A stretch of DNA of 64,000 bases from Minisyncoccota bacterium (GCA_041651055.1 JBAZJW010000001.1:691702-755701); one strand, 5' to 3'. Positions 4,923 through 63,605 are shown, numbered from the stretch's first letter. Notes: generated by a model not told the origin, from the letters alone. Numbers and translations: made by a program.

Positions 4923-5393
4923 ATGGACACAATCAAAGAACTTCGTGAAGAAACAGGTCTCTCATTTGCACAAATAAAAAAAGCACTTGATGAAGCAAAT
5001 GGAGACAAGGAACAGGCTCGTGCCGTGCTTTCACAGTACTCATCTGCTCAAGCTGAGAAGAAAGCTGACCGTGAATTATCTGCCGGAGTTATTTCTGCAT
5101 ATGTTCACTCAACAGGTACTGTTGGTGTGCTTCTCGAGCTCGGATGTGAGACAGACTTCGTTGCAAAGAATGAAGAGTTCGTAGCACTTGCTCGTGACCT
5201 CGCCATGCATGTCTGTGCTATGGCGCCGACATCAGTTAATAATGAAGACGGTCTTGGTGAAGAAACATCACTCATGAATCAATCATTCATTAAAAATCCT
5301 GGAATCACAGTAGAGCAGAGAATTCAGGCAGCTGTTCAGAAGTTTGGCGAAAACACTAAAGTGATACGCTTCACCCGTTACGCATTAGCGTAA
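4923..5393 (+). CDS. tsf: Elongation factor Ts (short form, 156 aa)
   Basis: N-terminal UBA-like TS-N motif (IKELREETGLSFAQIKKALDEANGD), immediately downstream of rpsB as in the conserved rpsB-tsf operon. Confidence 0.85.
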   Translation: MDTIKELREETGLSFAQIKKALDEANGDKEQARAVLSQYSSAQAEKKADRELSAGVISAYVHSTGTVGVLLELGCETDFVAKNEEFVALARDLAMHVCAMAPTSVNNEDGLGEETSLMNQSFIKNPGITVEQRIQAAVQKFGENTKVIRFTRYALA

Positions 5394-8294: not shown

Positions 8295-9107
8295 ATGACC
8301 GGCCATTTTCACCCTATAACAAAGGCAATAGACAAAATCTCTCGCATCTTTACTGAGATTGGTTTTGACGTAGTCGATGGCCCCGAACTTGAAAGTGAAT
8401 GGTACAACTTTGATGCCTTAAACGTGCCGCGAGACCATCCATCACGTGATATGCAGGATACGTTTTGGATTAAAGAAAGTAGCCTTGCTGAACGTTCTAT
8501 GACTGAGGCGGAGAAGAAAGTTCTTGCACAAGGTCTCTCGCTTGGACATGTGCTCCGTACACATACGTCCGGTGTACAGGTTCGTACTATTGAACGTTGG
8601 ATTAGAGAAGGAAAAGAATTTCCTTTGGCGGTGATTGTTCCTGGCAAGATATATAGAAATGAAGCGACAGATGCTCGTCATGAAGCACAATTCTTTCAAG
8701 TAGAAGGGTTAATGATTGGTAAAGATGTAACGCTTGCGAACTTGAAAGGTTTGCTAGAACATTTCTTTACAAAGTTTCTTGAGAAACATGTGGAGGTACG
8801 TTTTCGGTCATCTTTTTTTCCATTCACTGAGCCAAGTGTAGAGGTGGATATGCAATGCTTTAAGTGTGAAGGAACAGGGAAGATAGAGGGAAAGCAATGT
8901 CCTCTTTGTTCAGGATCAGGGTGGATTGAAATCATGGGTGCAGGAATGGTACATCCACAGGTGTTACAAAACGCAGGACTCAATGCACAAGAATACCAAG
9001 GGTTCGCATTCGGCGCAGGGCTTGACCGTCTCGTGATGCTCGAGACGGGCATTGATGATATTCGCATGCTGTATAATGGTGACTTGCGTTTGGTAAATCA
9101 ATTTTAA
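8295..9107 (+). CDS. pheS: Phenylalanine--tRNA ligase alpha subunit (compact, 270 aa, with inserted Cys4 zinc ribbon)
   Basis: Class II motifs (FPFTEPSVEVD, GWIEIMGAGMVHPQVL, GFAFGAGLDRL); insert CFKCEGTGKIEGKQCPLCSGSG. Confidence 0.9.
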   Translation: MTGHFHPITKAIDKISRIFTEIGFDVVDGPELESEWYNFDALNVPRDHPSRDMQDTFWIKESSLAERSMTEAEKKVLAQGLSLGHVLRTHTSGVQVRTIERWIREGKEFPLAVIVPGKIYRNEATDARHEAQFFQVEGLMIGKDVTLANLKGLLEHFFTKFLEKHVEVRFRSSFFPFTEPSVEVDMQCFKCEGTGKIEGKQCPLCSGSGWIEIMGAGMVHPQVLQNAGLNAQEYQGFAFGAGLDRLVMLETGIDDIRMLYNGDLRLVNQF

Positions 9108-11579: not shown

Positions 11580-12239
11580 TTAATTAAACATTCTGGGGAC
11601 GTGATTTGAATCCATCTCGCTGCTTTTTAGTACGTGTACAGGAATATCTTGTGCCATGCCGACAATGGTGTGAGGAAGACCAAATTCTGTATCAGATACA
11701 CGGACAAGAGGATAGGAAAAGTAGTCTTTTGAAATCACGCATGCGCCGGTGTTGATGAGTGATGAAGGAAATCCCGTTTGTGATTGACCCTCATTGAGAC
11801 CAAAAAGTAGCCCATCTTTTTCGACGACTTGACCTTTTTTCTGTAGACCAGTTTCACCTTCATCAAATACGAGCATTGCATTGTCGTGTGCTATGAGTTT
11901 TTCTAAGTCACTGTTTTCGTAAATATCATCTCCCATAAGTATGAGAGCTTTTTCTTGTACGTATTCCTTGCAGAGAGCGATGGCTCCACCTGTACCGTTT
12001 AGTTCATCTTGAATGATGTATGTGACAGGGATGGTGTTCCACGAAGAACCGAAGTAGTCCATAATGATTTCTTTTTTATAGCCGACTACAAAAATGATTT
12101 CGGAAACTTCTTTCGGAAGCGCTTCTAATTTCCATTCGAGGAGGTTTTTATTCAAGACACTAAGCATGGGCTTGGGTGTGTTTTCTGTGAGTGTTCCCAT
12201 GCGTACACCACGGCCTGAGGCCAAAATAATTGCGAGCAT
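11580..12239 (-). CDS. Sugar-phosphate nucleotidyltransferase (NTP-transferase family)
   Basis: N-terminal LAIILASGRGVRMG signature of nucleotidyltransferases. Confidence 0.7.
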   Translation of the reverse strand: MLAIILASGRGVRMGTLTENTPKPMLSVLNKNLLEWKLEALPKEVSEIIFVVGYKKEIIMDYFGSSWNTIPVTYIIQDELNGTGGAIALCKEYVQEKALILMGDDIYENSDLEKLIAHDNAMLVFDEGETGLQKKGQVVEKDGLLFGLNEGQSQTGFPSSLINTGACVISKDYFSYPLVRVSDTEFGLPHTIVGMAQDIPVHVLKSSEMDSNHVPRMFN

Positions 12240-12303
12240 CTCTTGATAGTATCAAAAAGTTGCACATAATGAAAACAGAATTGCGGTGTGGTAGTATAGG
12301 GAT

Positions 12304-13569
12304 ATGAAAGTCTATTGTATAGGAATTGGAGGCATCGGCCTCTCAGCGCTCGCCAGATATTACAAGCACAAAGGGTATGATGTGTCTGGGTCTGATTCGG
12401 CAGAATCAGACATCGACAGTGCACTTCGTAAAGAAGGCATCGATGTCGCGATTGGACATAATGGTGACCATATCACAGATGATATAGATTTGGTGGTCTA
12501 CACTATCGCCATTTCAATCGACAATGTCGAGTATGTTCGTGCACAAGAGCTCGGCATTACGTGTATGAGTTATCCAGAAGCGCTTGGTGAAATTACAAAA
12601 GAAAAGACCACCATTGCTGTGTCGGGTACACACGGGAAGACGACAACAACGGCGATGATGTATTATGCGCTCAGGGCTTGCGGTATCAATCCGACGGTTA
12701 TTGTTGGCAGCCTTCTTGCAGACGGTGGTACTAATTTTATTGCCGGAGACAGTGATTATATGGTAGTGGAAGCGTGTGAGTACAGGCGTTCATTTCTCAA
12801 TCTTCATCCGACGCATATTATTGTGACAAATATTGATGCAGATCATTTGGATTATTACAAAGATCTCGAAGATATTCACACAGCCTTCCAGTCGTTTGCA
12901 GAAAAGTTGGAAGGTAAAGGGTTGCTCGTCGCTCACAGTAATGTTTCTTTGAATACTGATGGAAAGAAAGTGGATGCCGATTGTGTCGATAAAAAAAGTA
13001 TCACGCTCAGTGTTCTTGGTGAACACAATCAAGAAAATGCACAGCTTGTCCTTGCTCTCACAAACGCTCTTGGGTTAGATGAGGAAAAGGCACGAAAAGG
13101 ACTCCTCCTCTTTCCTGGTACATGGCGTAGACTTGAGTACAAAGGTGTCACAGAGCATGGCGTGGCGGTATACGATGACTATGGACATCATCCTACCGAA
13201 ATACATGCGACACTCGCCGCCCTTCGTCAAAAGTATCCCAAAGGGGACTACAAGCTTCATGTATTTTTTCAGCCACATTTGCATTCACGCACGAAGGCTT
13301 TTTTTGATGAGTTCGGTGAAGTGTTGAAAGAAGCTGATTATGTTTCTCTTATGCCAATTTACAAAGCGCGACTTGAAACAGACACCTCTGTGTCGTCAGA
13401 GGATCTTCGGGATCTCATTATTCTAAAAGGCGGACAAGCAGAAAGCTTGCCCTCTATTGCTGATATGCCTTCGCACATTATAGCTATTACTGATGCCAAA
13501 ACTGTGGTGGTGAATGTTGGTGCTGGAGATGCATTTGCAGGGCTTAACGCAATACATCTCACCAAATAA
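12304..13569 (+). CDS. murC: UDP-N-acetylmuramate--L-alanine ligase
   Basis: VYCIGIGGIGLSALARY N-terminus and GTHGKTTTTAM P-loop typical of MurC. Confidence 0.85.
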   Translation: MKVYCIGIGGIGLSALARYYKHKGYDVSGSDSAESDIDSALRKEGIDVAIGHNGDHITDDIDLVVYTIAISIDNVEYVRAQELGITCMSYPEALGEITKEKTTIAVSGTHGKTTTTAMMYYALRACGINPTVIVGSLLADGGTNFIAGDSDYMVVEACEYRRSFLNLHPTHIIVTNIDADHLDYYKDLEDIHTAFQSFAEKLEGKGLLVAHSNVSLNTDGKKVDADCVDKKSITLSVLGEHNQENAQLVLALTNALGLDEEKARKGLLLFPGTWRRLEYKGVTEHGVAVYDDYGHHPTEIHATLAALRQKYPKGDYKLHVFFQPHLHSRTKAFFDEFGEVLKEADYVSLMPIYKARLETDTSVSSEDLRDLIILKGGQAESLPSIADMPSHIIAITDAKTVVVNVGAGDAFAGLNAIHLTK

Positions 13570-13570
13570 T

Positions 13571-14896
13571 ATGAAGCGCGAAATTTACCTCCCATATTTT
13601 GAAAATAAAAAAGTGACCGTCATGGGGCTTGGCCTTCTTGGCCGCGGCATAGGAGATACTGCGTTTCTTGCACAAGCGGGAGCGGAAATTATTGTTACAG
13701 ATAAGAAAACAAAAGAACAGTTGGAAGAATCTCTCGAAGCGCTCAAGGAATGTGCGGATATAACGTATGTATTAGGTGAACACAGAATGGAGGATTTTGA
13801 AAACAGAGATTTTATTATGGAAGCTGCCGGTGTGCCACTTGATAGTGAGTTCATTATGCATGCAAAGGAGAATCATATACCTGTGTATATGTCAGCAGCA
13901 CTTGTATGTGACATTGTCATGAAGAATATTCCTGAGGTAGTGATTATCGGTGTGACAGGAACGAGAGGAAAAAGTACAACCACACAAATGATTGCACATA
14001 TATTGCGAGAGAATGGATCGCGGGTGCACCTCGGTGGTAATGTTCGCGGTGTTGCCAATCTTCCGTTACTTGATGCTATTGATGACGGAGATTTTCTTGT
14101 GCTTGAACTTGATAGTTGGCAGTTACAAGGTTTTGGAGAAATGAAAATCAGTCCACATATCGCAGTGTTTACGAGTTTCTTGGATGATCACATGAATTAT
14201 TACAAGAATGATAAAGAAGCATACTTCAGTGACAAGGCGAATGTGTACCGTAATCAACATTCTGGAGATGTGTTCATTGCAAGCGCACAAGCAAGTAGTG
14301 AAATTATTATGCGGGGAGAACGAGTTGCTATTTCTGTTCCAGAAAATATTCATTTTGAAATGAAATTAATCGGGGAACATAATCAGGTTGCGGCAGGGTT
14401 GGCATACGAAGTGGCCACTCAGTGTGGATTAGATGATGAAAGTATTCGTGCAGCAATTGCGACATTTTCTGCTGTGGATGGACGGTTGGAAGATCTGGGT
14501 GTCTTTAGAGGGGTTCGTGTTTTTAATGACAATAATGCCACAACACCAGATGCTACTATTGCAGGAATAAAAGCTATCAACGAAACCTATCATGTAAAAC
14601 CTATTCTTATTATGGGCGGTTCAGATAAAGGACTTCCTCTTGAAGATTTGGAGCATGTAGTGCAAGAAGATACGAAGGCGTGTGTGTTGCTCGCTGGGAC
14701 GGGTACAGATACATTATCTCTATCGAAAGATATTGTCTGCGAGACGCTTTCTGAATGTGTTGCCAAAGCCTTCAGTCTCGCTAAAGAGGGTGATGTTATT
14801 CTTTTCAGCCCAGCATTTGCTTCGTTCTCAAAGTATTTTAATAATGAATATGAGAAGAATGATACGTTTGTAAAAGAGGTACAAAAATACGTCTAA
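13571..14896 (+). CDS. murD: UDP-N-acetylmuramoylalanine--D-glutamate ligase
   Basis: VTGTRGKSTTTQM P-loop, Mur ligase architecture. Start moved to ATG 13571, 1 nt after the murC stop. The ORF-track start at 13514 would overlap murC. Confidence 0.8.
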   Translation: MKREIYLPYFENKKVTVMGLGLLGRGIGDTAFLAQAGAEIIVTDKKTKEQLEESLEALKECADITYVLGEHRMEDFENRDFIMEAAGVPLDSEFIMHAKENHIPVYMSAALVCDIVMKNIPEVVIIGVTGTRGKSTTTQMIAHILRENGSRVHLGGNVRGVANLPLLDAIDDGDFLVLELDSWQLQGFGEMKISPHIAVFTSFLDDHMNYYKNDKEAYFSDKANVYRNQHSGDVFIASAQASSEIIMRGERVAISVPENIHFEMKLIGEHNQVAAGLAYEVATQCGLDDESIRAAIATFSAVDGRLEDLGVFRGVRVFNDNNATTPDATIAGIKAINETYHVKPILIMGGSDKGLPLEDLEHVVQEDTKACVLLAGTGTDTLSLSKDIVCETLSECVAKAFSLAKEGDVILFSPAFASFSKYFNNEYEKNDTFVKEVQKYV

Positions 14897-14977: not shown

Positions 14978-17065
<2,088 letters not shown>

Positions 17066-17254
17066 TTCGTCTAAAATAACCCATCTACTTTGTTGTGTTC
17101 GTCGCTCGCTCGTCAACGTACTCTTTCGTACGTCTCCTCGCTCGCTTCTCCACGCCGCGTAGCTGAGTCATTTTATACAAACTAGGGACCCCTGAATCCT
17201 GTGTCTCGCTTCTAAAACAATTTCTGACTTAGCTGGGTATCGTTGAAACTATTT

Positions 17255-17290
17255 TTAATTAAAAAAAGCGCCCATTTGCACGGGCGCTTG
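17255..17290 (-). terminator. Rho-independent terminator of the minus-strand gene 17305..17709
   Basis: Hairpin AGCGCCC-GTGCAAAT-GGGCGCT followed by T7 on the minus strand. Confidence 0.6.
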
Positions 17291-17304
17291 AAGGCGAGTC
17301 TTCT

Positions 17305-17709
17305 TTATTCCGAGGCGAGGATCTTGCCAATTCTTTTTTGATATTTCTCTACACGGGCCAAAAGTTTTTTACTCCCACCCGAGTTTAAACGTAAATAATC
17401 CATGGCAATTTTCACATCTTTCATTTGTGCTTTTTGCCAGGATGGATATATGCTTTTTGCGTGCTCAATCATCCACTGCTCCGTTTCATCTCCGATTCTT
17501 GTTCGGGCTGCAACAAGCTGTTGTGGATCAAATGGTGCCAGCACCTTGTCCAAGAGCTTAAGACACAGAATCATTTTTTCTGCCTTCTCTTTCCGCTTTG
17601 CTATAAATTTTGACACATACGACACACCCTCTAAAACGCAAAGGAAGAGAAGGGCAAGGATTGAAAGAACTACAACGACCGGATCGAATTGTATTAAACT
17701 TGTGTTCAC
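17305..17709 (-). CDS. Hypothetical membrane-anchored protein
   Basis: 134 aa, N-terminal TM helix, no known motif. Confidence 0.4.
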   Translation of the reverse strand: MNTSLIQFDPVVVVLSILALLFLCVLEGVSYVSKFIAKRKEKAEKMILCLKLLDKVLAPFDPQQLVAARTRIGDETEQWMIEHAKSIYPSWQKAQMKDVKIAMDYLRLNSGGSKKLLARVEKYQKRIGKILASE

Positions 17710-17829
17710 GATGAAACTCCTCTGGTTGGTTTATTTGAAACTACCACAATCGCTTAACATCGTCAACTGAACACTTTTACTTTTGTCTCTCATTGTAGTA
17801 GAGTGGTGGAGGATTTCTTTAACCCTCTA

Positions 17830-18545
17830 AAGGAGTAGAAAGTGACAATAATAGTTCTAGATAGTACAGGAGGCGAGGGTCTCAACGGGATTCTCATTGA
17901 AGTGTTGCCTGACACTCTCATCCTCACTCTCAGTACAGTCTTCCTTGATTCGTGGGGCGACGAACGAGATATTTGCCACCTTCTTGATGCTCTTGAGGGT
18001 GCGGCGGACGAGGTGCCGTGTGGCATTCGTTCCGATGGAAATAATCCAGTTAACCTTGTCATAGTGGACGATCGCCGTGAGCCCGTTCTTGGACTTGTCC
18101 AATCGCTTGCGCTAGGGCTTGGAGATCTTGGAGACTCCTCCGTTGGATTTATTTCGAAGAGACCAAGTCTCCATCCATACGGTCCACTAAAACATGGAAA
18201 GAAAGGAAAGGCAAAGAAATGGTGAAAACAATCTGTTCTTGTGGTGTATGCTGTGAACACCGGCCACCACAAACGTGCCGAATTTTGGCCGAACGTTCTG
18301 ACGAAGCAAGAAGAGGTGCGCTCCTTCAGCTTGGGGTTGAGTGCCACCTGCTGACCCTGTCAACTGAGATGGGGCAGCCTGTCATCCAGGCGACCCCTTC
18401 AGATCCCCATAACGGGGACTTCCACGATGAGGCTCTTCCTGCTTGGGGAGAGTCTGCCGTACCCGACATGCTCTGAAATATGTCCGTCCGTGAGCGCTTC
18501 AAGCTCAAATGCCTTCGAGACATCTCGTCGGCTTTTTTATTTGTA
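17830..18545 (+). other. GC-rich (~50%) 0.7 kb segment without credible CDS; candidate large structured ncRNA or decayed foreign gene, ending in a + strand terminator
   Basis: Only low-complexity Ser/Arg/Pro-rich or Leu/Asp/Gly-rich ORFs overlap on both strands; local stems (e.g. GGAGACT/AGTCTCC); terminator-like hairpin + T6 at about 18500..18545. Confidence 0.2.
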
Positions 18546-18548
18546 TCC

Positions 18549-18577
18549 TTGATATATAACGATTTTTATGGTATAAT
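18549..18577 (+). promoter_or_regulatory. Sigma70-type promoter TTGATA-N17-TATAAT with TGg extension; predicts a near-leaderless mRNA for the 18587 gene
   Basis: -35 18549..18554, -10 18572..18577; ATG at 18587, only about 9 nt after the -10. Confidence 0.6.
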
Positions 18578-18586
18578 GCACACCTC

Positions 18587-19105
18587 ATGAAATGGGTAAT
18601 TTTTACAGGGACATGGCGTCTCACGAATAAAGAAGTTGAGAATGATGTACGCCTCGCTGCAAGGCGGGTTTTTGAAAATGGTGATGGACTAGTCACGGGA
18701 GGTGCTACAGGAGTGGACTTTTTTGCCATGGATGAATTTGTAAAACTTAACCCAGAATGTACTCGTATACGTATTTTTATACCAGCACGACTACATCATT
18801 TTATTGATGACTATAAGAAAAACTGGAAGCATTTTCCAGTGTCAGATATGGACATCGAAAATCTCGATTATCTTTTACAATTGATTAAAGAGAGGAATCC
18901 AAGTGCTGTGTTTGAAGTGCGAAAAGACAGTGGAGACATCACACAGATAGAGTATGACCTACGTCACAATGAAGAAGTGACTTTTTCTGATGAAGTGTAT
19001 GCTTTCCACGTGAATTCAAGTACGGGCACTCACGATACTATTACCAAAGCACAAGCGGCAGGCCTTCCTGTGACATTGCATAAGAAATATATAATAGCGG
19101 AGTAG
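18587..19105 (+). CDS. Rossmann-fold SLOG/DprA-like (Smf-LOG superfamily) protein
   Basis: GLVTGGATGVDFFAMDEF resembles the DprA/LOG GxxxGxD nucleotide-binding motif; 172 aa; assignment tentative. Confidence 0.45.
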   Translation: MKWVIFTGTWRLTNKEVENDVRLAARRVFENGDGLVTGGATGVDFFAMDEFVKLNPECTRIRIFIPARLHHFIDDYKKNWKHFPVSDMDIENLDYLLQLIKERNPSAVFEVRKDSGDITQIEYDLRHNEEVTFSDEVYAFHVNSSTGTHDTITKAQAAGLPVTLHKKYIIAE

Positions 19106-19120
19106 GCGGTTTCCTTGTGA

Positions 19121-19149
19121 TTGACTCAACCTGTTTTTCGAGCTATAAT
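19121..19149 (+). promoter_or_regulatory. Consensus sigma70 promoter TTGACT-N17-TATAAT
   Basis: -35 19121..19126, -10 19144..19149, followed by AGGAG (19167..19171) and ATG 19177. Confidence 0.65.
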
Positions 19150-19176
19150 GACGACCTGTTCAAATTAGGAGACCCT

Positions 19177-19314
19177 ATGACCCCAGAAGTTCCGCCGACT
19201 CAGGTCGACAAACCCCTGGCTGAGCTGGTGGTTCAGGAGATACCACCGCACCAGCGCTCTCATCTGAACGATGAGAGAATTGCGCAAATGCAGATGCAGG
19301 CGCAACAACAATAG
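19177..19314 (+). CDS. Small protein (45 aa), unknown function, independently transcribed
   Basis: MTPEVPPTQVDKPLAELVVQEIPPHQRSHLNDERIAQMQMQAQQQ; consensus promoter, AGGAG RBS at 5-nt spacing, and terminator downstream. Confidence 0.45.
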   Translation: MTPEVPPTQVDKPLAELVVQEIPPHQRSHLNDERIAQMQMQAQQQ

Positions 19315-19336
19315 TCGCGGAGTAATCCACCGCGCA

Positions 19337-19366
19337 AGCCGCACCCTAAAAAGTGCGGCCTTTTTC
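19337..19366 (+). terminator. Rho-independent terminator
   Basis: GCCGCAC-CCTAAAAA-GTGCGGC followed by CTTTTTCTT. Confidence 0.6.
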
Positions 19367-19440
19367 TTGCATAGTTTTTCGAAAAAGCGTAGGATGAAAA
19401 CTGTTTTTACAACAATAGTTCTTTTTTAGAGAGGTTTTTT

Positions 19441-19971
19441 ATGTCAAATGTTTTGGCCAACGCAGACGCCGCCACGATGTTGTCCTTCCAAAAGGTGATT
19501 CTTATCGCCGGCGTATTCAATGATGCGCGTATCTCCGGCGCCGTTGAGGAAGAATTCATGATTCCCTCGCAGAGACTTCTCGTGAGAGCTTTTGCGGAAG
19601 TTCTCGGCGAAGAGTTTGTATTGTGTGAAGGTGAAATTCTAAATATCACACAAGATACAAACTTCCCACACGGCGCATCTGCTCAAATCCGCTTTGACTC
19701 AACCAGGAAGGTTGTAAACGTGAAGACGTCGAGGTATGAGCATTCATGGCTTTGCCTTCTGAAGTTCGATGTTTGGATAGACGTTACACCTCCCGGATCT
19801 GACCCGAGATGGCTTTCACCGGTGAAGTATTCCCCAGGTGGAGCTCGTCCAGCGTACAGAAAGTTGGACAAGAACAACGAAGCAACTAAGCCGAAGCAAA
19901 GTGACGTTCGCCGTCTTTCGCAGATACTCGATCATCTTTGGCAAGAGGCTATAGGTGAAGGTGTTGCATGA
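19441..19971 (+). CDS. Hypothetical protein (176 aa), GC-rich, ends in TGA
   Basis: No recognisable motif; followed by hairpin GCCGC-CCCCAAGGGA-GCGGC plus T6 at 19992..20019. Confidence 0.45.
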   Translation: MSNVLANADAATMLSFQKVILIAGVFNDARISGAVEEEFMIPSQRLLVRAFAEVLGEEFVLCEGEILNITQDTNFPHGASAQIRFDSTRKVVNVKTSRYEHSWLCLLKFDVWIDVTPPGSDPRWLSPVKYSPGGARPAYRKLDKNNEATKPKQSDVRRLSQILDHLWQEAIGEGVA

Positions 19972-20038
19972 CTTCTCACCTGATCGCAAAACGCCGCCCC
20001 CAAGGGAGCGGCATTTTTTATTCTTAACAGAGGAATTT

Positions 20039-21799
20039 TTATTTCTTATTCCGTATTTCTTCTGTCATCTTCATGAGCAATTCTTCTATTTTCATTTCAC
20101 CGATTTTGCCTTCTGTTCGATGTTCGAGTGTTACGGTATCATTTGCCACTTCAGCGTCTCCGATAACCGCCCAGTAGGGGGTTTTCATTTCACGCGTGTT
20201 ACGAATCTTTTTACCGAGACCTTCTCTACTGTTATCAATTTTCACACGAACATTTACTGCATCGAGTTCTTCATATACTTTCTTCGCATGTTCGTAGTGA
20301 TTATCTGTGATAGGAAGAATCGTAATTTGATTTGGCGATAGCCAAAGAGGGAAGTTGCCTGCAAAGTGTTCTATCATCACACCCATGAAGCGTTCGAGTG
20401 ATCCAGAAATAGCTCGATGTATAACAACAGGTCTTTCCTTTTTTCCTTCTTCATTAATAAATGAAAGATCAAAACGTTCAGGCAGGTTAAAGTCACACTG
20501 TACAGTTGCTAATTGCCATTCGCGTCCGATTGCATCTTTAAACATAAAGTCGAGCTTAGGTCCGTAGAAAGCTGCTTCATCTTTTGCTGGTTTGTATGGA
20601 AGGTTTTGCTTTTCACATACATTAGTAAGTGCTTGTTCTGCATTGTTCCAAACTTCGTCACTTCCTAGATATTTAGAAGTATCATCACCACGAAGAGAAA
20701 GACGAACCCAATAACCATCAATCATGTTCATGGTTGTATAAAATTCTTTGATGATAGAAACAATTGTAGACATCTCCTCTTCAATCTGACTTACTCTACA
20801 GAATAGGTGTCCGTCATCTTGTGTAATGGCTCGTACACGGGTTAGTCCACCGAGCTGTCCTGATTTTTCATCACGATAAATAGTAGCTGGTTCGAAGTAT
20901 CGTATTGGCATATCTCTGTACGAGAACTGGTTATCAGCATAAATTTGCATATGGTGAGGACAGTTCATCGGCTTCATGATGAATTTTTCTTCCTTTCCTT
21001 GTACGCGGAAAAGCTCATCTCCAAATTTTGCCGCATGGCCAGAAGTTTCGTAAAGTGCTTCCTTTGCGATATGTGGAGTCCATACACGAGAGTATCCTTT
21101 TTTAGCATGAAGTGACCAAAGGTAATCTTCTATTTCTTTACGGATAATCATACCGTTTGGCTGCATAAGCGGAAGCCCTGGGCCGATGAGAGATGAGACG
21201 GTAAAGAGTTTGAGCTGTGCCCCCAATATTCTATGATCTCGTTTCTTGGCTTCTTCTTGTTGTGTGATGTATGCATCGAGCTCAGCTTTTCCTTCGAAAG
21301 CAAGACCATAGATACGTGTGAGCATTGGCTTTGTTTCATCGCCGCGCCAGTATGCTCCAGCGATGTGCGTGAGAGCGAATCCATCAAGCGGAATTTCTTC
21401 GGAATTCGAAACATGAGGTCCTTCACAGAGATCGAAGAAATCATCACCCGTTCTATAGATGGTCACGTCTTCACCTTTATCCGCGATGCCGTCGATAAGT
21501 TCTAGCTTGAAAGGGTTAACAGAAAAAAGTGTTCGCGCCTGATCAGGGGACAAAGCTTCTACGGTAAATGGAAGATGTCGCTTGATAATATCTCGCATTG
21601 TATCTTCTACTTTTTTCAAGTCATCCACGCCTATTTTTACACCATCTACAAAGTCTATATCATAGTAAAAGCCGGTCTCAGTCACTGGGCCGATGGTCGG
21701 AAGTGCATGAGGAAAATGATGCTTGATGGCCATCAAAAGAATGTGCGCAAGGGAATGACGCTGTTTGAATAAAGGTGTTTGATCTTGTTTCTGTGACAT
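20039..21799 (-). CDS. thrS: Threonine--tRNA ligase (586 aa, lacks long N-terminal extension)
   Basis: Class II aaRS motifs and ThrRS zinc-site residues; HSLAHILLMAI N-terminal region of the second additional domain. Confidence 0.9.
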   Translation of the reverse strand: MSQKQDQTPLFKQRHSLAHILLMAIKHHFPHALPTIGPVTETGFYYDIDFVDGVKIGVDDLKKVEDTMRDIIKRHLPFTVEALSPDQARTLFSVNPFKLELIDGIADKGEDVTIYRTGDDFFDLCEGPHVSNSEEIPLDGFALTHIAGAYWRGDETKPMLTRIYGLAFEGKAELDAYITQQEEAKKRDHRILGAQLKLFTVSSLIGPGLPLMQPNGMIIRKEIEDYLWSLHAKKGYSRVWTPHIAKEALYETSGHAAKFGDELFRVQGKEEKFIMKPMNCPHHMQIYADNQFSYRDMPIRYFEPATIYRDEKSGQLGGLTRVRAITQDDGHLFCRVSQIEEEMSTIVSIIKEFYTTMNMIDGYWVRLSLRGDDTSKYLGSDEVWNNAEQALTNVCEKQNLPYKPAKDEAAFYGPKLDFMFKDAIGREWQLATVQCDFNLPERFDLSFINEEGKKERPVVIHRAISGSLERFMGVMIEHFAGNFPLWLSPNQITILPITDNHYEHAKKVYEELDAVNVRVKIDNSREGLGKKIRNTREMKTPYWAVIGDAEVANDTVTLEHRTEGKIGEMKIEELLMKMTEEIRNKK

Positions 21800-25268: not shown

Positions 25269-25355
25269 GGAGGCGTCGCATAGTGGTCTAGTGCACTACC
25301 TTGGAAAGGTAGCAACGGGGTAACCTGTTCGAGAGTTCAAATCTCTCCGCCTCCG
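25269..25355 (+). tRNA. tRNA-Ser (anticodon GGA), long variable arm, discriminator G
   Basis: Hand fold: acceptor GGAGGCG/CGCCTCC, 3-bp D-stem with GG loop, anticodon stem CTACC/GGTAG with loop TTGGAAA, variable arm about 17 nt, T-arm GAGAG-TTCAAAT-CTCTC. Confidence 0.7.
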
Positions 25356-25384
25356 CTTTGAAAACAATCTGTTCTACTTTTTTT

Positions 25385-25441
25385 CGGAGAAAGGTAGCAA
25401 CGGGGTAACCTGTTCGAGAGTTCAAATCTCTCCGCCTCCGC
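25385..25441 (+). repeat. Direct duplicate of the 3' half of tRNA-Ser(GGA), starting inside the anticodon loop
   Basis: GGAGAAAGGTAGCAACGGGGTAACCTGTTCGAGAGTTCAAATCTCTCCGCCTCCGC is identical to the tRNA from the anticodon stem 3' strand to the 3' end. Confidence 0.75.
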
Positions 25442-25449
25442 AAAATCGC

Positions 25450-25636
25450 GAGCGTACTCGCGACCAGATTTTGCTAGTGCATTTCAAGGAGCGTACTCGC
25501 GACTATGAATATGCCTCCGCAAACAAATATAAAAAGACTACTAAAATCAGAAGTTTATTTTGTGTGAGCGTACTCGCGACCAGATTTTGCTAGTGCATTT
25601 CAAGGAGCGTACTCGCGACTATGAATATGCCTCCGC
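25450..25636 (+). repeat. Two 71-bp tandem units (period 116 bp), each ending in tRNA-acceptor-like GCCTCCGC
   Basis: Unit gagcgtactcgcgaccagattttgctagtgcatttcaaggagcgtactcgcgactatgaatatgcctccgc at 25450..25520 and again at 25566..25636; internal 15-mer gagcgtactcgcgac twice per unit. Confidence 0.8.
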
Positions 25637-25663
25637 TCTGAAAAGAATCAATTTACTTTGTGT

Positions 25664-25747
25664 CGGAGAAAGGTGATAAGGTGAAAGCCTTCACGGGTTC
25701 GAATCCCGCACCCTCTGCTTTGCTCGGGAGAAAGGTAGTAATAGGCG
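25664..25747 (+). repeat. Two further anticodon-loop-to-3'-end tRNA fragments (a different Ser/Leu-type tRNA, then a diverged copy)
   Basis: CGGAGAAAGGTGATAAGGTGAAAGCCTTCACGGGTTCGAATCCCGCACCCTCTGC, then CGGGAGAAAGGTAGTAATAGGCG; all fragments begin with the same GGAGAAAGG junction. Confidence 0.6.
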
Positions 25748-25829
25748 ATTTTTAAGCGTAAAAATCGCGTCGAAATTAGCAAATTTCGACGTAAATAAAT
25801 CGCACTGTCTCCTTTAAAAATAACCCTTC

Positions 25830-26420
25830 CTAATTCCCCTCAGAAATTTTAGCTTTAAAAAATTCTTCGATATCAATCTCATACCACTCTTTCGGAATTT
25901 TTTCTCTAAACCAAATACTTCGTTCGTAGTCATCGAGTTCTGTTGCGATGACCCATGTCAGAATAACGACAAAGACTATACAAAAAACAGACGCTCCTCC
26001 TATAATGAGATTTTCATAATTAAAGAGCATTGAGAGAATTATTAATATACATGATGGTGCTCCAACTAAAATATGCATCATAATAGGTATCTGCTCATCA
26101 CGATAAAGAAGAAATGTTTCAAGATCCTTCCGTAAAACACATTTTGAAATAATTTTATATTCTTTAAAGACTGACTCTACAGCAATACTTGCGAATATGA
26201 CATAAATGAAAGCAACAAGAGGCATAATCATGAAGAGGATTGGATTTTCTGCTTCTTTACTAAACATAAGACCATTTTGAATAAAAACATATTTCCAGAT
26301 GCCAACCATAATAATCCCAGCCACAATAGGCTTGAGGATAATAGGAAGATGTCGTTTCAGTGTATTCCAGTTCCTGTTCCAAGGAATGTAATTTCTTTTT
26401 CTAACGATTGTTGTTTCCAT
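25830..26420 (-). CDS. Hypothetical 4-TM membrane protein
   Basis: 196 aa, four hydrophobic helices, no known motif; first gene after the tRNA-Ser repeat scar. Confidence 0.5.
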   Translation of the reverse strand: METTIVRKRNYIPWNRNWNTLKRHLPIILKPIVAGIIMVGIWKYVFIQNGLMFSKEAENPILFMIMPLVAFIYVIFASIAVESVFKEYKIISKCVLRKDLETFLLYRDEQIPIMMHILVGAPSCILIILSMLFNYENLIIGGASVFCIVFVVILTWVIATELDDYERSIWFREKIPKEWYEIDIEEFFKAKISEGN

Positions 26421-62792: not shown

Positions 62793-62931
62793 TCACGTTG
62801 TATTTGGCACTCCATTTCCACCCCAAAATCCAAAAAAGTCACCTAAAGTCTAGTTTCCTGAAATACCTTGGTATATAACCCTTATTTATGTCCTTTATAT
62901 TGACAAATAGGCTATTTCCGTGTTGTAATAC

Positions 62932-63034
62932 TTGACAAAGGGGTCAGAATTTGCTATGATTAGAACACAGAAGAGTTGAAGTGTAAATACCAGAGTTTCT
63001 CAGGTATTTTTATTTTAGCTCAAAGTTATACAGA
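62932..63034 (+). promoter_or_regulatory. Promoter TTGACA-N17-TATGAT followed by an about 65-nt segment ending in a terminator-like hairpin + U-run (tiny transcript or attenuator before 63069 gene)
   Basis: -35 62932..62937, -10 62955..62960; ATACCAGAG..CTCAGGTAT then TTTTTATTTT around 63005..63034. Confidence 0.35.
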
Positions 63035-63068: not shown

Positions 63069-63605
63069 ATGATCAAAAACATTTACAAGGTTAGCCAGAT
63101 GCTTGCGTTTGTGCCATTCATGGCCATCCCAAGTATCTCACTTGCCTCACATATTGGTTCACTTGACGCGACTCCTGTAACAAAGGCAGAAGTATCAGTG
63201 AACGATCTCCGTCAGCAGAAAGCCGATGCCATCGATAGTTACTTTAAGGAACGCTCAATGCCCCTTTTAGGAACTGGTATGACATTCGTGCTTGTAGCAG
63301 AAAAATATGGACTGGACTGGAGACTTCTTCCAGCCATTGGTGTTCGCGAATCTTCAGGTGGTAAAGCTGCTTGTGGATACAACCCATTCGGTTGGGGGTC
63401 ATGTAAGCTAAGTAACTTCTCAAGTTACGAGCAGGCTATTGAATCCCTTGGCCGAAACCTAGGTGGAGCCAACCCAAAGACAGCTCGTTACTATGCTGGT
63501 AAATCTACAATGGAAAAGTTGTATCACTATAACGGTACTGTTGTTGAATCATATCCAGACGAAGTTGCTAGTATTATGAATAAAGTTGAGACGTATATGA
63601 ATTAA
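63069..63605 (+). CDS. Hypothetical secreted protein
   Basis: Signal peptide (MLAFVPFMAIPSISLASH); 178 aa; no firm motif. Confidence 0.5.
   Translation: MIKNIYKVSQMLAFVPFMAIPSISLASHIGSLDATPVTKAEVSVNDLRQQKADAIDSYFKERSMPLLGTGMTFVLVAEKYGLDWRLLPAIGVRESSGGKAACGYNPFGWGSCKLSNFSSYEQAIESLGRNLGGANPKTARYYAGKSTMEKLYHYNGTVVESYPDEVASIMNKVETYMN

Follow-up and report, generated by a model that had tools for sequence, protein, structure and literature searches.

The stretch of DNA analysed here (the window) comprises 64,000 nucleotides (nt) of a metagenome-assembled genome of Candidatus Paceibacterota, within the candidate phyla radiation (CPR), and this report concerns the spacer between its convergent genes gyrB and thrS, in which lies a small gene of the SLOG superfamily. 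The order of genes is murD (13514-14896), gyrB (14990-17065, plus strand), an open reading frame (ORF) of 134 amino acids (aa), ORF A, ORF B, the SLOG gene, a 45-aa ORF, a 176-aa ORF, thrS (20039-21799, minus strand), and then LemA, HtpX, LemA, and a TPM-domain gene. Gene calls are those of the identical locus in an ENA contig (L006), whose GyrB matches the HATPase_c, DNA_gyraseB, and Toprim models of Pfam; locus tags (WC444_03705 to WC444_03725) are from the NCBI annotation, and JGI calls were also used. The two anchors, gyrB on the left and thrS on the right, are separated by 2,973 nt, and the spacer holds five transcription units, each with its own predicted signals: the 134-aa gene on the minus strand, ORF A with ORF B, the SLOG gene, the 45-aa mini-gene, and the 176-aa gene. 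A preliminary description of this DNA had seen in positions 17790-19990 a GC-rich island of separately signalled small units, and had suggested a phage or plasmid remnant or a conflict system with an SLOG component. That the region is made up of small units with separate signals is borne out by the sequence.

The SLOG gene (WC444_03715, 18587-19105, plus strand) codes for a DprA-like Rossmannoid protein of 172 aa. It has no Shine-Dalgarno (SD) motif. Its promoter, TTGATA-N17-TATAAT with TG ahead of the -10 element (18549-18577), ends 9 nt before the ATG at 18587, and the mRNA is predicted to be leaderless or nearly so; both the promoter and this placement had been recognized in the preliminary description and are found just there. 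The arrangement recurs in the family, where a -10-like hexamer precedes the ATG by 5-10 nt in 61% of 66 members and an SD-like motif occurs in two of them.

The AlphaFold2 (AF2) model of the protein, built on an alignment of 59 sequences, reaches a predicted local distance difference test score (pLDDT) of 96 and a predicted template-modelling score (pTM) of 0.91. When it is compared with the PDB by Foldseek, the top match is the Rossmann domain of Helicobacter pylori DprA (E = 3e-6, TMq 0.67), followed in order by YpsA, ShosA, TM1055, Moco carrier proteins, ThsA-SLOG, and LOG, all with probability 1.00. This search, which the preliminary description had proposed as a check on its SLOG/DprA-like call, upholds the call by fold, DprA and YpsA being the best matches. 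Within the alignment, G39, G42, and D44 of the sequence GGATGVD (residues 38-44) are invariant, and so are N143, S145, G147, T148, D150, and T151 of a second motif (N143-x-S-x-G-T-x-D-T). The ligand-binding loop of SLOG proteins is Gly-rich and bears a GxD/E signature after the second strand, as described for YpsA (PMC6459960), and GGATGVD carries this signature. Resemblance to DprA models is weak (TIGR00732, E = 0.015; PF02481, E = 0.063; phrog_768, E = 0.029), with scores below the cut-offs of PF02481 (12.9 vs 29.6 bits) and TIGR00732 (14.5 vs 191 bits), and a profile search against the DprA chains of the PDB gives E = 0.09. There is no Pfam match at E <= 1 beyond weak ones to DprA and SdiA-regulated families, and the protein is not a member of YpsA/DUF1273/DUF2493. 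The 172 aa consist wholly of a Rossmannoid core and an internal insertion. Because the accessory domains of DprA are missing and the model thresholds are not reached, the protein is, judging from the model, a member of the SLOG superfamily nearest to the core of DprA and not DprA proper. One related genome (L004) has two SLOG paralogs 1.1 kb apart; an apparent N-terminal extension resembling the second of these was rejected, as it resulted from alignment drift through stop codons.

The family is well delimited. It comprises 404 matches, of which the best 120 have 72-88% identity, and a metagenome scan added 79 more loci at 39-85%. It is confined to Paceibacterota-type contigs, and searches of viral contigs and of phage and plasmid records gave no relative. 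When the 1,024 neighboring ORFs of 72 SLOG loci were clustered, gyrB and thrS recurred in seven loci each, and a UDG-like gene and a methyltransferase-like gene in five each; across these loci no conserved partner gene emerged beyond the recurrent gyrB and thrS. Because the GGATGVD loop is common with DprA, conservation is close to that of GyrB, and a partner gene is missing, we infer that the protein may have a housekeeping-type role, being expressed constitutively and at a high level and binding either a nucleotide or single-stranded nucleic acid.

Relatives were compared through 171 fetched loci, and the gyrB/thrS junction was counted over 80 species-level loci; GyrB of the window has 60-88% identity with that of related loci. 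The convergent junction is kept in 45 of these 80, with a spacer that ranges from 9 nt to 9.2 kb (median 1.3 kb). The cargo of the spacer is unrelated between genomes and includes sortases, CARDB/PKD surface proteins, NUDIX, hemerythrin, and GIY-YIG proteins, and mostly ORFs of no known family; integrases and transposases are absent from the cargo of the related junctions. The SLOG gene occupies the slot in at least eight other genomes, with the order gyrB-SLOG-thrS in six loci (L007, L009, L106, L113, L127, and L133) and SLOG-thrS in L149/L150. L088 has gyrB, a gap of 120 nt, a 175-aa gene, and thrS, and L087 has gyrB, a two-gene unit of 101 and 79 aa, small ORFs, a 175-aa gene, and thrS. The SLOG copies within the slot are scattered across the SLOG tree, the contexts of the closest SLOG homologs differ, and among the metagenomic SLOG loci with sufficient flank, 40 out of 43 lie away from thrS.

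The 176-aa gene (WC444_03725, 19441-19971, plus strand) belongs to a very small family that adjoins thrS. It is preceded by a promoter TTGCAT-N17-TAGGAT (19367-19395), a leader of ~40 nt, and an SD-like AGAGG (19430-19434). The preliminary description had called it an orphan, which does not hold, as homologs stand beside thrS in about six relatives (L087, L088/L089, L169/L170, L171, and, for a weak homolog, L009). The nearest have 55% (P0128) and 51% (P0129) identity and the others (P0130-P0135) 24-43%; the weak homolog, a 172-aa protein, has 33% over 67 aa (E = 2e-6) and has H101, W103, L104, P117, and G119 in common with the window protein. The DNA is conserved with L087 from 19361 onward, and L087, L088, and L169 have the promoter layout of the window, namely, a T-run and CTTGCAT followed by TAGTAT or TAGGAT. 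Because nucleotide identity with L087 is 0.68, 0.73, and 0.37 at the three codon positions, the comparison indicates that the gene is under purifying selection. Downstream, a hairpin GCCGCCCCCAAGGGAGCGGC (19993-20012) with T-runs on both sides (feature 19993-20019, unstranded, read from the sequence, its loop being too long for the hairpin scan) is probably a terminator common to the convergent 176-aa gene and thrS; the ORF and a terminator exist as announced earlier, but the terminator is probably not the gene's own. The AF2 model is poor (pLDDT 55.6), and the fold search on it was uninformative. A relationship with transglutaminase-like or papain-like proteins, considered on the basis of an HSW...D motif, was rejected: the putative catalytic Cys is found only in L009, being elsewhere Ser, Thr, Ala, Ile, Val, or a gap, and there is no Pfam match.

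The segment from 17.79 to 18.54 kb was first regarded as a 0.7-kb stretch free of ORFs. This is not the case. ORF A (WC444_03710, 17842-18225, plus strand, 127 aa) starts with GTG six nt downstream of AAGGAG (17830-17835), and ORF B (18219-18476, plus strand, 85 aa, Cys-rich) has an ATG that overlaps the stop of ORF A (ATGGTGA). A terminator-like hairpin, GCCTTCGAGACATCTCGTCGGC followed by TTTTTT (18511-18538, plus strand, read from the sequence), closes the unit, and the minus strand shows no U-run 3' of it. The NCBI annotation includes ORF A, and the JGI calls include ORF B; a mechanical listing of ORFs in the segment gives these two plus minus-strand shadow ORFs. ORF B has the motif CxC-x3-C-x7-C, and its product is probably a small Cys-rich metal-binding protein. 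Its one homolog is the 79-aa ORF of L087 (36% identity, pairwise E = 7e-11), which has in common with it the Cys motif, LQLxVExHL, and DPHxGDFxDxAL, lies in the equivalent position between gyrB and the 175-aa gene, and overlaps the upstream 101-aa ORF by 4 nt. An exhaustive search of 1.84 billion representatives, which did recover the entry of ORF B itself, gave no further homolog. For ORF A no homolog was found among 5.8 billion proteins, in a word-index search with concatenated queries that missed the entry of ORF B itself, so that its negatives are not exhaustive. The SD site, ATGGTGA overlap, terminator, codon score of ORF A (see following), and homolog of ORF B in L087 together make it most likely that two translationally coupled genes occupy the segment. 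Such an overlapping pair is also what one finds in type II toxin-antitoxin systems, but ORF A and ORF B have zero matches in Pfam, NCBIfam, PADLOC, and PHROGs. Separately, a 17-nt exact match TGAAAACAATCTGTTCT joins the junction of ORF A and ORF B (18223-18239) to positions 25359-25375, just 3' of a tRNA-Ser gene (E = 0.013); it may be due to chance.

The 45-aa ORF (WC444_03720, 19177-19314, plus strand) is Pro/Gln-rich. Its promoter TTGACT-N17-TATAAT (19121-19149, plus strand), its AGGAG (19167-19171) ahead of the ATG at 19177, and its intrinsic terminator (19338-19367, plus strand), made of a hairpin at 19338-19359 with a 7-bp stem including 6 G-C pairs and then the T-run CTTTTTCTTG, are each in the place where the preliminary description had put them. 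Protein searches gave no homolog of this ORF, and the equivalent place in L087 holds a 27-aa Gln-rich ORF that looks unrelated when read from the sequence. At the other end of the spacer, the 134-aa hypothetical protein (WC444_03705, 17305-17709, minus strand) is encoded from a GTG with GAGGAG upstream and has a hydrophobic N-terminal helix, given which it is predicted to be membrane-anchored. The gene is native-like in composition (GC 0.415, and 0.41 at third codon positions, hereafter GC3), no homolog was found across the 171 fetched loci, and we regard it as a lineage-specific occupant of the slot. A strong hairpin at 17266-17289 is the terminator of this gene and may also serve gyrB. In the 239-nt gap 3' of gyrB (17066-17304), where this hairpin lies, GC is 0.456, and positions 17099-17118 recur imperfectly, as a 20-nt direct repeat, at 17135-17154.

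Composition statistics cover the 64-kb window, the source contig being of 775 kb. The GC of 17790-19990 is 0.467 against a window mean of 0.412, which is the 99.8th percentile among 2.2-kb windows and the top value, and the GC-richest 750 nt of the window begin at 17801 (0.507). The rise described earlier is hence real, but its size had been overstated (about 50% against 38-40% in the flanks) and it is patchy: one patch spans 17.8-18.6 kb (up to 0.52) and another 19.0-20.0 kb (~0.48), with the SLOG gene between them at a genome-typical 0.401. The same mixture is seen when the ORFs are compared with the 49 other genes of the window (GC3 mean 0.354, sd 0.064, max 0.477), as ORF A (0.41), the SLOG gene (0.33), and the 134-aa ORF are native-like and the remaining three are not. 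Sites matching the sigma-70 consensus at 11 or more of 12 positions number five in the window, two of them being the promoters of the SLOG gene and of the 45-aa ORF; shuffled sequence gives 2.6 ± 1.7 such sites per whole window. Elsewhere in the window, tandem near-consensus sigma-70 promoters (TTGACA-N18-TGTAAT at 62900 and TTGACA-N17-TATGAT at 62932) stand upstream of an ORF at 63069-63605.

Most genes in the window lack an SD motif, and in many the start codon lies 5-9 nt downstream of an extended -10 element such as TGGTAGTAT or TGATACTAT, as at 8295, 11580 (minus), 12304, 20039 (minus), 26566, 37224, 45680, 54344 (minus), and 57876. Control genes in the window and in related loci show the same starts adjacent to the -10 element, with SD-like motifs in 13%. 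In this genome and the related loci, leaderless mRNAs thus seem to be the rule. A leaderless layout as a special trait of the SLOG gene was consequently rejected, since the controls show the same pattern.

The reading that we favor, with a probability of roughly two in three (0.68), is that the region is a plastic chromosomal slot, the spacer of a conserved convergent gyrB/thrS junction in Paceibacterota, rather than a mobile island or conflict system. The spacer would serve, in this lineage, as a slot for small accessory genes. Its present contents would be one strongly conserved, lineage-wide SLOG gene, one gene of a small family associated with thrS, and three units that are either fast evolving or young. 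The GC-rich small genes would be lineage-specific, fast-evolving accessories, gathered in a place where insertion breaks no operon.

Several observations weigh against this reading. First, the GC3 values of ORF B (0.52), the 45-aa ORF (0.61), and the 176-aa ORF (0.49) are above those of all 49 other genes. Second, SD-like motifs precede all five non-SLOG ORFs of the slot, as opposed to ~7 of 50 elsewhere (Fisher p = 2e-4); such motifs are unusual in a genome where most genes are leaderless, and some of these ORFs may therefore be foreign. Third, among the genomes that keep gyrB-SLOG-thrS, SLOG identity is uncorrelated with that of GyrB (Spearman rho 0.005) or of ThrS. Within the GyrB clade formed by the window, L127, L007, L009, and L106 (GyrB 78-85%), SLOG identity goes from 46% to 76% and three types of SLOG allele occur; L106, for example, has 76% identity with the window in SLOG, 79% in GyrB, 49% in ThrS, and 49% in LemA. 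The discordance points to replacement of alleles within the slot or to differential loss of old paralogs, and not to simple vertical descent. Finally, ORF A, the 45-aa gene, and the 134-aa gene have no homologs that we could find, and their reality rests on signals and codon statistics.

Part of this evidence is what one would expect if the 2.2 kb between gyrB and thrS were the remnant of a phage, a plasmid, or an integrative element, as first proposed. To the GC maximum, the three GC3 outliers, the SD-led genes, and the incongruence between SLOG and GyrB, one may add that two of the five near-consensus promoters of the window are found here, that ORF A, the 45-aa ORF, and the 134-aa ORF were not found in any relative compared, and that phages do have stand-alone SLOG proteins. 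However, neither the DNA nor the proteins of the region have a single match in collections of 50,697 phage records, 72,556 plasmid records, and 2.9 million viral contigs searched by blastn, tblastn, and pattern scans. No integrase or transposase is present among the ORFs of the region, no direct or inverted repeat of at least 20 nt flanks the slot, and att-like or tandem repeats are absent from its flanks. The SLOG proteins of phages have at most 20% identity with this one, no nearer than cellular DprA, and both the most GC-typical gene (SLOG) and the GC-rich 176-aa gene are syntenic in relatives. The preliminary description had set the occurrence of the same block in all relatives against horizontal acquisition; piece by piece this is largely what one finds, as the SLOG gene, the 176-aa gene, and ORF B occur at the same site in relatives, but the block as a unit is found nowhere else. 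Acquisition of the region as a foreign island is therefore unlikely.

It is improbable that the segment at 17.79-18.54 kb is instead a structured non-coding RNA in which ORF A and ORF B are spurious. Its GC is 0.50 in a genome at 0.41, it ends in a plus-strand terminator, and it folds better than dinucleotide shuffles on the two strands (z = -2.1 and -2.9, compared with -1.15 to +1.9 in four coding controls). Besides, ORF A lacks a homolog, the codon-usage score of ORF B is negative, and a TCCCC-loop-GGGGA hairpin inside ORF B is retained in L087, as read from the alignment. Yet the excess of folding is modest and on both strands, and Rfam 15 gives nothing at the gathering score, and chance-level matches only at E <= 10, within 17000-20300. 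A strong SD site stands at the right distance from the start of ORF A; the in-frame codon-usage log-odds score of this ORF is +0.16, within the range of native genes (0.08-0.37), whereas the other five frames are negative, and its GC at codon positions one to three (0.66, 0.41, and 0.41) follows a coding pattern. The DNA of the segment does not align with its counterpart in L087, which repeats the layout of two overlapping ORFs; the likeness, including the Cys pattern and DPHxGDF, is at the protein level only. In ORF B, nucleotide identity with L087 is 0.47, 0.47, and 0.34 at the three codon positions, that is, higher at positions one and two than at position three, and by this measure ORF B is under apparently weaker purifying selection than the 176-aa gene.

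A functional two-gene module tied to thrS, formed by the SLOG and 176-aa proteins and later invaded by the other ORFs, is hardly more plausible and perhaps a shade less so. In its favor, L009 has gyrB, SLOG, the 172-aa gene for the weak homolog, and thrS in the order and orientation of the window, and both genes hold their position relative to thrS in several genomes. Against it, the two occur together in just two genomes, each is found without the other in more, the window provides them with separate promoters and terminators, and the metagenomic SLOG loci lie nearly always away from thrS (40 of 43).

The search with PADLOC gave only two weak matches for the SLOG protein (a type II methyltransferase model, E = 0.015; PsyrA, E = 0.033), and the remaining five proteins of the spacer had no match. 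A nucleotide-signalling conflict or defence system, with SLOG as sensor or processor and the 176-aa protein or ORF A/B as effector or regulator, is very improbable: ThsA and ShosA are among the fold matches, SLOG adjoins a member of the 176-aa family in the window and in L009, and the variable neighborhood resembles a defence island, but no PADLOC match is significant, the protein consists of an SLOG core alone, without any SIR2, TIR, transmembrane, or nuclease domain either fused to it or encoded next to it, its recurrent neighbors are only gyrB, thrS, and the UDG-like and methyltransferase-like genes, the 176-aa gene stands beside thrS without SLOG in L087, L088, and L169, L007, L113, and L127 have SLOG but no 176-aa gene in the slot, and conservation at the level of GyrB is atypical of defence genes.

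Coming back to the plastic slot, the proposal of a foreign island or a conflict system does not stand, and the region should not be treated as a mobile or defence element. In its place there is a well-defined SLOG family, with 404 matches, a confident structural model, a conservation similar to that of GyrB, and in-slot alleles at odds with the host phylogeny, among the largely unexplored conserved unknowns of the phylum; the comparison of relatives documents repeated turnover of genes at the convergent gyrB/thrS junction in Paceibacterota; and the finding that starts adjacent to the -10 element are the norm bears on gene calling in these genomes. A more daring extension, which we consider doubtful, is that the SLOG protein is a "minimal DprA," acting on its own to bind or process nucleotides or single-stranded nucleic acid, specific to Paceibacterota, without a Pfam family, as conserved as GyrB, and with alleles that are swapped between lineages at a fixed slot, and that ORF A, ORF B, and the 45-aa gene are young genes born in the slot, possibly de novo. 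If this were true, symbionts with reduced genomes would need a minimal DprA, for example, for handling DNA that is taken up or for nucleotide salvage.

Other features of the junction in relatives are as follows. Sortase genes make up 10 of the 91 ORFs in gyrB-thrS spacers and come with large surface proteins with CARDB, PKD, or Ig repeats (L011, L026, L029, L047, L054, L067, L072, L083, and others); in L011, L026, and similar genomes the junction is, from its gene content, a putative site for cell-surface gene cassettes. In L087/L088, identity with the window is 88% for GyrB, 82% for LemA, and 75% for HtpX but 59% for ThrS, and L106 shows a like contrast between GyrB (79%) and ThrS (49%), which suggests that thrS itself has been replaced in some lineages. 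In L007, the closest relative in GTDB, two hemerythrin genes (12124-12549 and 13256-13681) with 89% protein identity form direct repeats around SLOG, and they represent either a duplication around this gene or an assembly artefact. In L002 (~4960-5000) the SLOG gene begins right after the 3' end of a tRNA gene (...GGTTCGAGTCCCCCATTGCCCACCA), and a HicA-toxin gene and small ORFs lie downstream. Elsewhere in the window, the 3' half of tRNA-Ser(GGA) (25269-25356) is duplicated exactly downstream of the gene, over 53 nt (25304-25356 = 25389-25441). After this copy come two identical 71-nt repeats (25450-25520 and 25566-25636), both with CCTCCGC at the end, and then a third, different fragment resembling a tRNA 3' half (~25665-25720). 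This array (25269-25830) looks like stacked att-site scars left by integrative elements at the tRNA gene.

Among known systems, the closest is DprA/Smf (PF02481; H. pylori DprA, PDB 4LJK, 4LJR, and 5MLL), which provides the best fold match. The loop GGATGVD corresponds to GGALGVD in the H. pylori protein, and both proteins have a C-terminal S/T-G-T segment. DprA proper has accessory SAM-like and winged-helix domains and loads RecA on single-stranded DNA. In contrast, the SLOG protein of the window has neither an N-terminal SAM-like nor a C-terminal winged-helix domain in its 172 aa, its identity with DprA is ~20%, and a helical insertion of ~65 residues (residues ~66-133) is particular to its family.

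YpsA (DUF1273; Bacillus subtilis, PDB 2NX2) is, like the protein studied here, a stand-alone single SLOG domain of similar size (fold E = 5e-6), and the stand-alone SLOG proteins of phages (DUF2493, related to YspA/cpYpsA, such as gp61 of mycobacteriophage D29) match the fold of the window protein at E = 2e-5 to 2e-4 in BFVD. In all of these proteins the Gly-rich loop is followed by the GxD/E signature. Yet the present family differs from both, as it is not a member of their Pfam or PHROG families by sequence, identities are 13-20%, and it is absent from viral collections.

SLOG acts as a sensor in ThsA of Thoeris, and the DprA-like ShosA is part of the Shosta defence system (PMC6459960). The protein of the window has the superfamily fold in common with the SLOG domain of ThsA and with ShosA (8ZVA, E = 6e-4; 7UXS, E = 9e-3) but lacks an effector domain, is not accompanied by ThsB/TIR or ShosT, and has no significant PADLOC match. 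Its conservation and its fixed synteny point to a putative housekeeping role. Regarding the locus as a whole, the gyrB/thrS spacer is comparable to the plasticity hot spots found at convergent junctions, which also combine conserved core flanks with unrelated cargo of variable length. It differs from them in being devoid of integrase, tRNA, and att repeats, and in that its SLOG cargo is itself conserved in several lineages.

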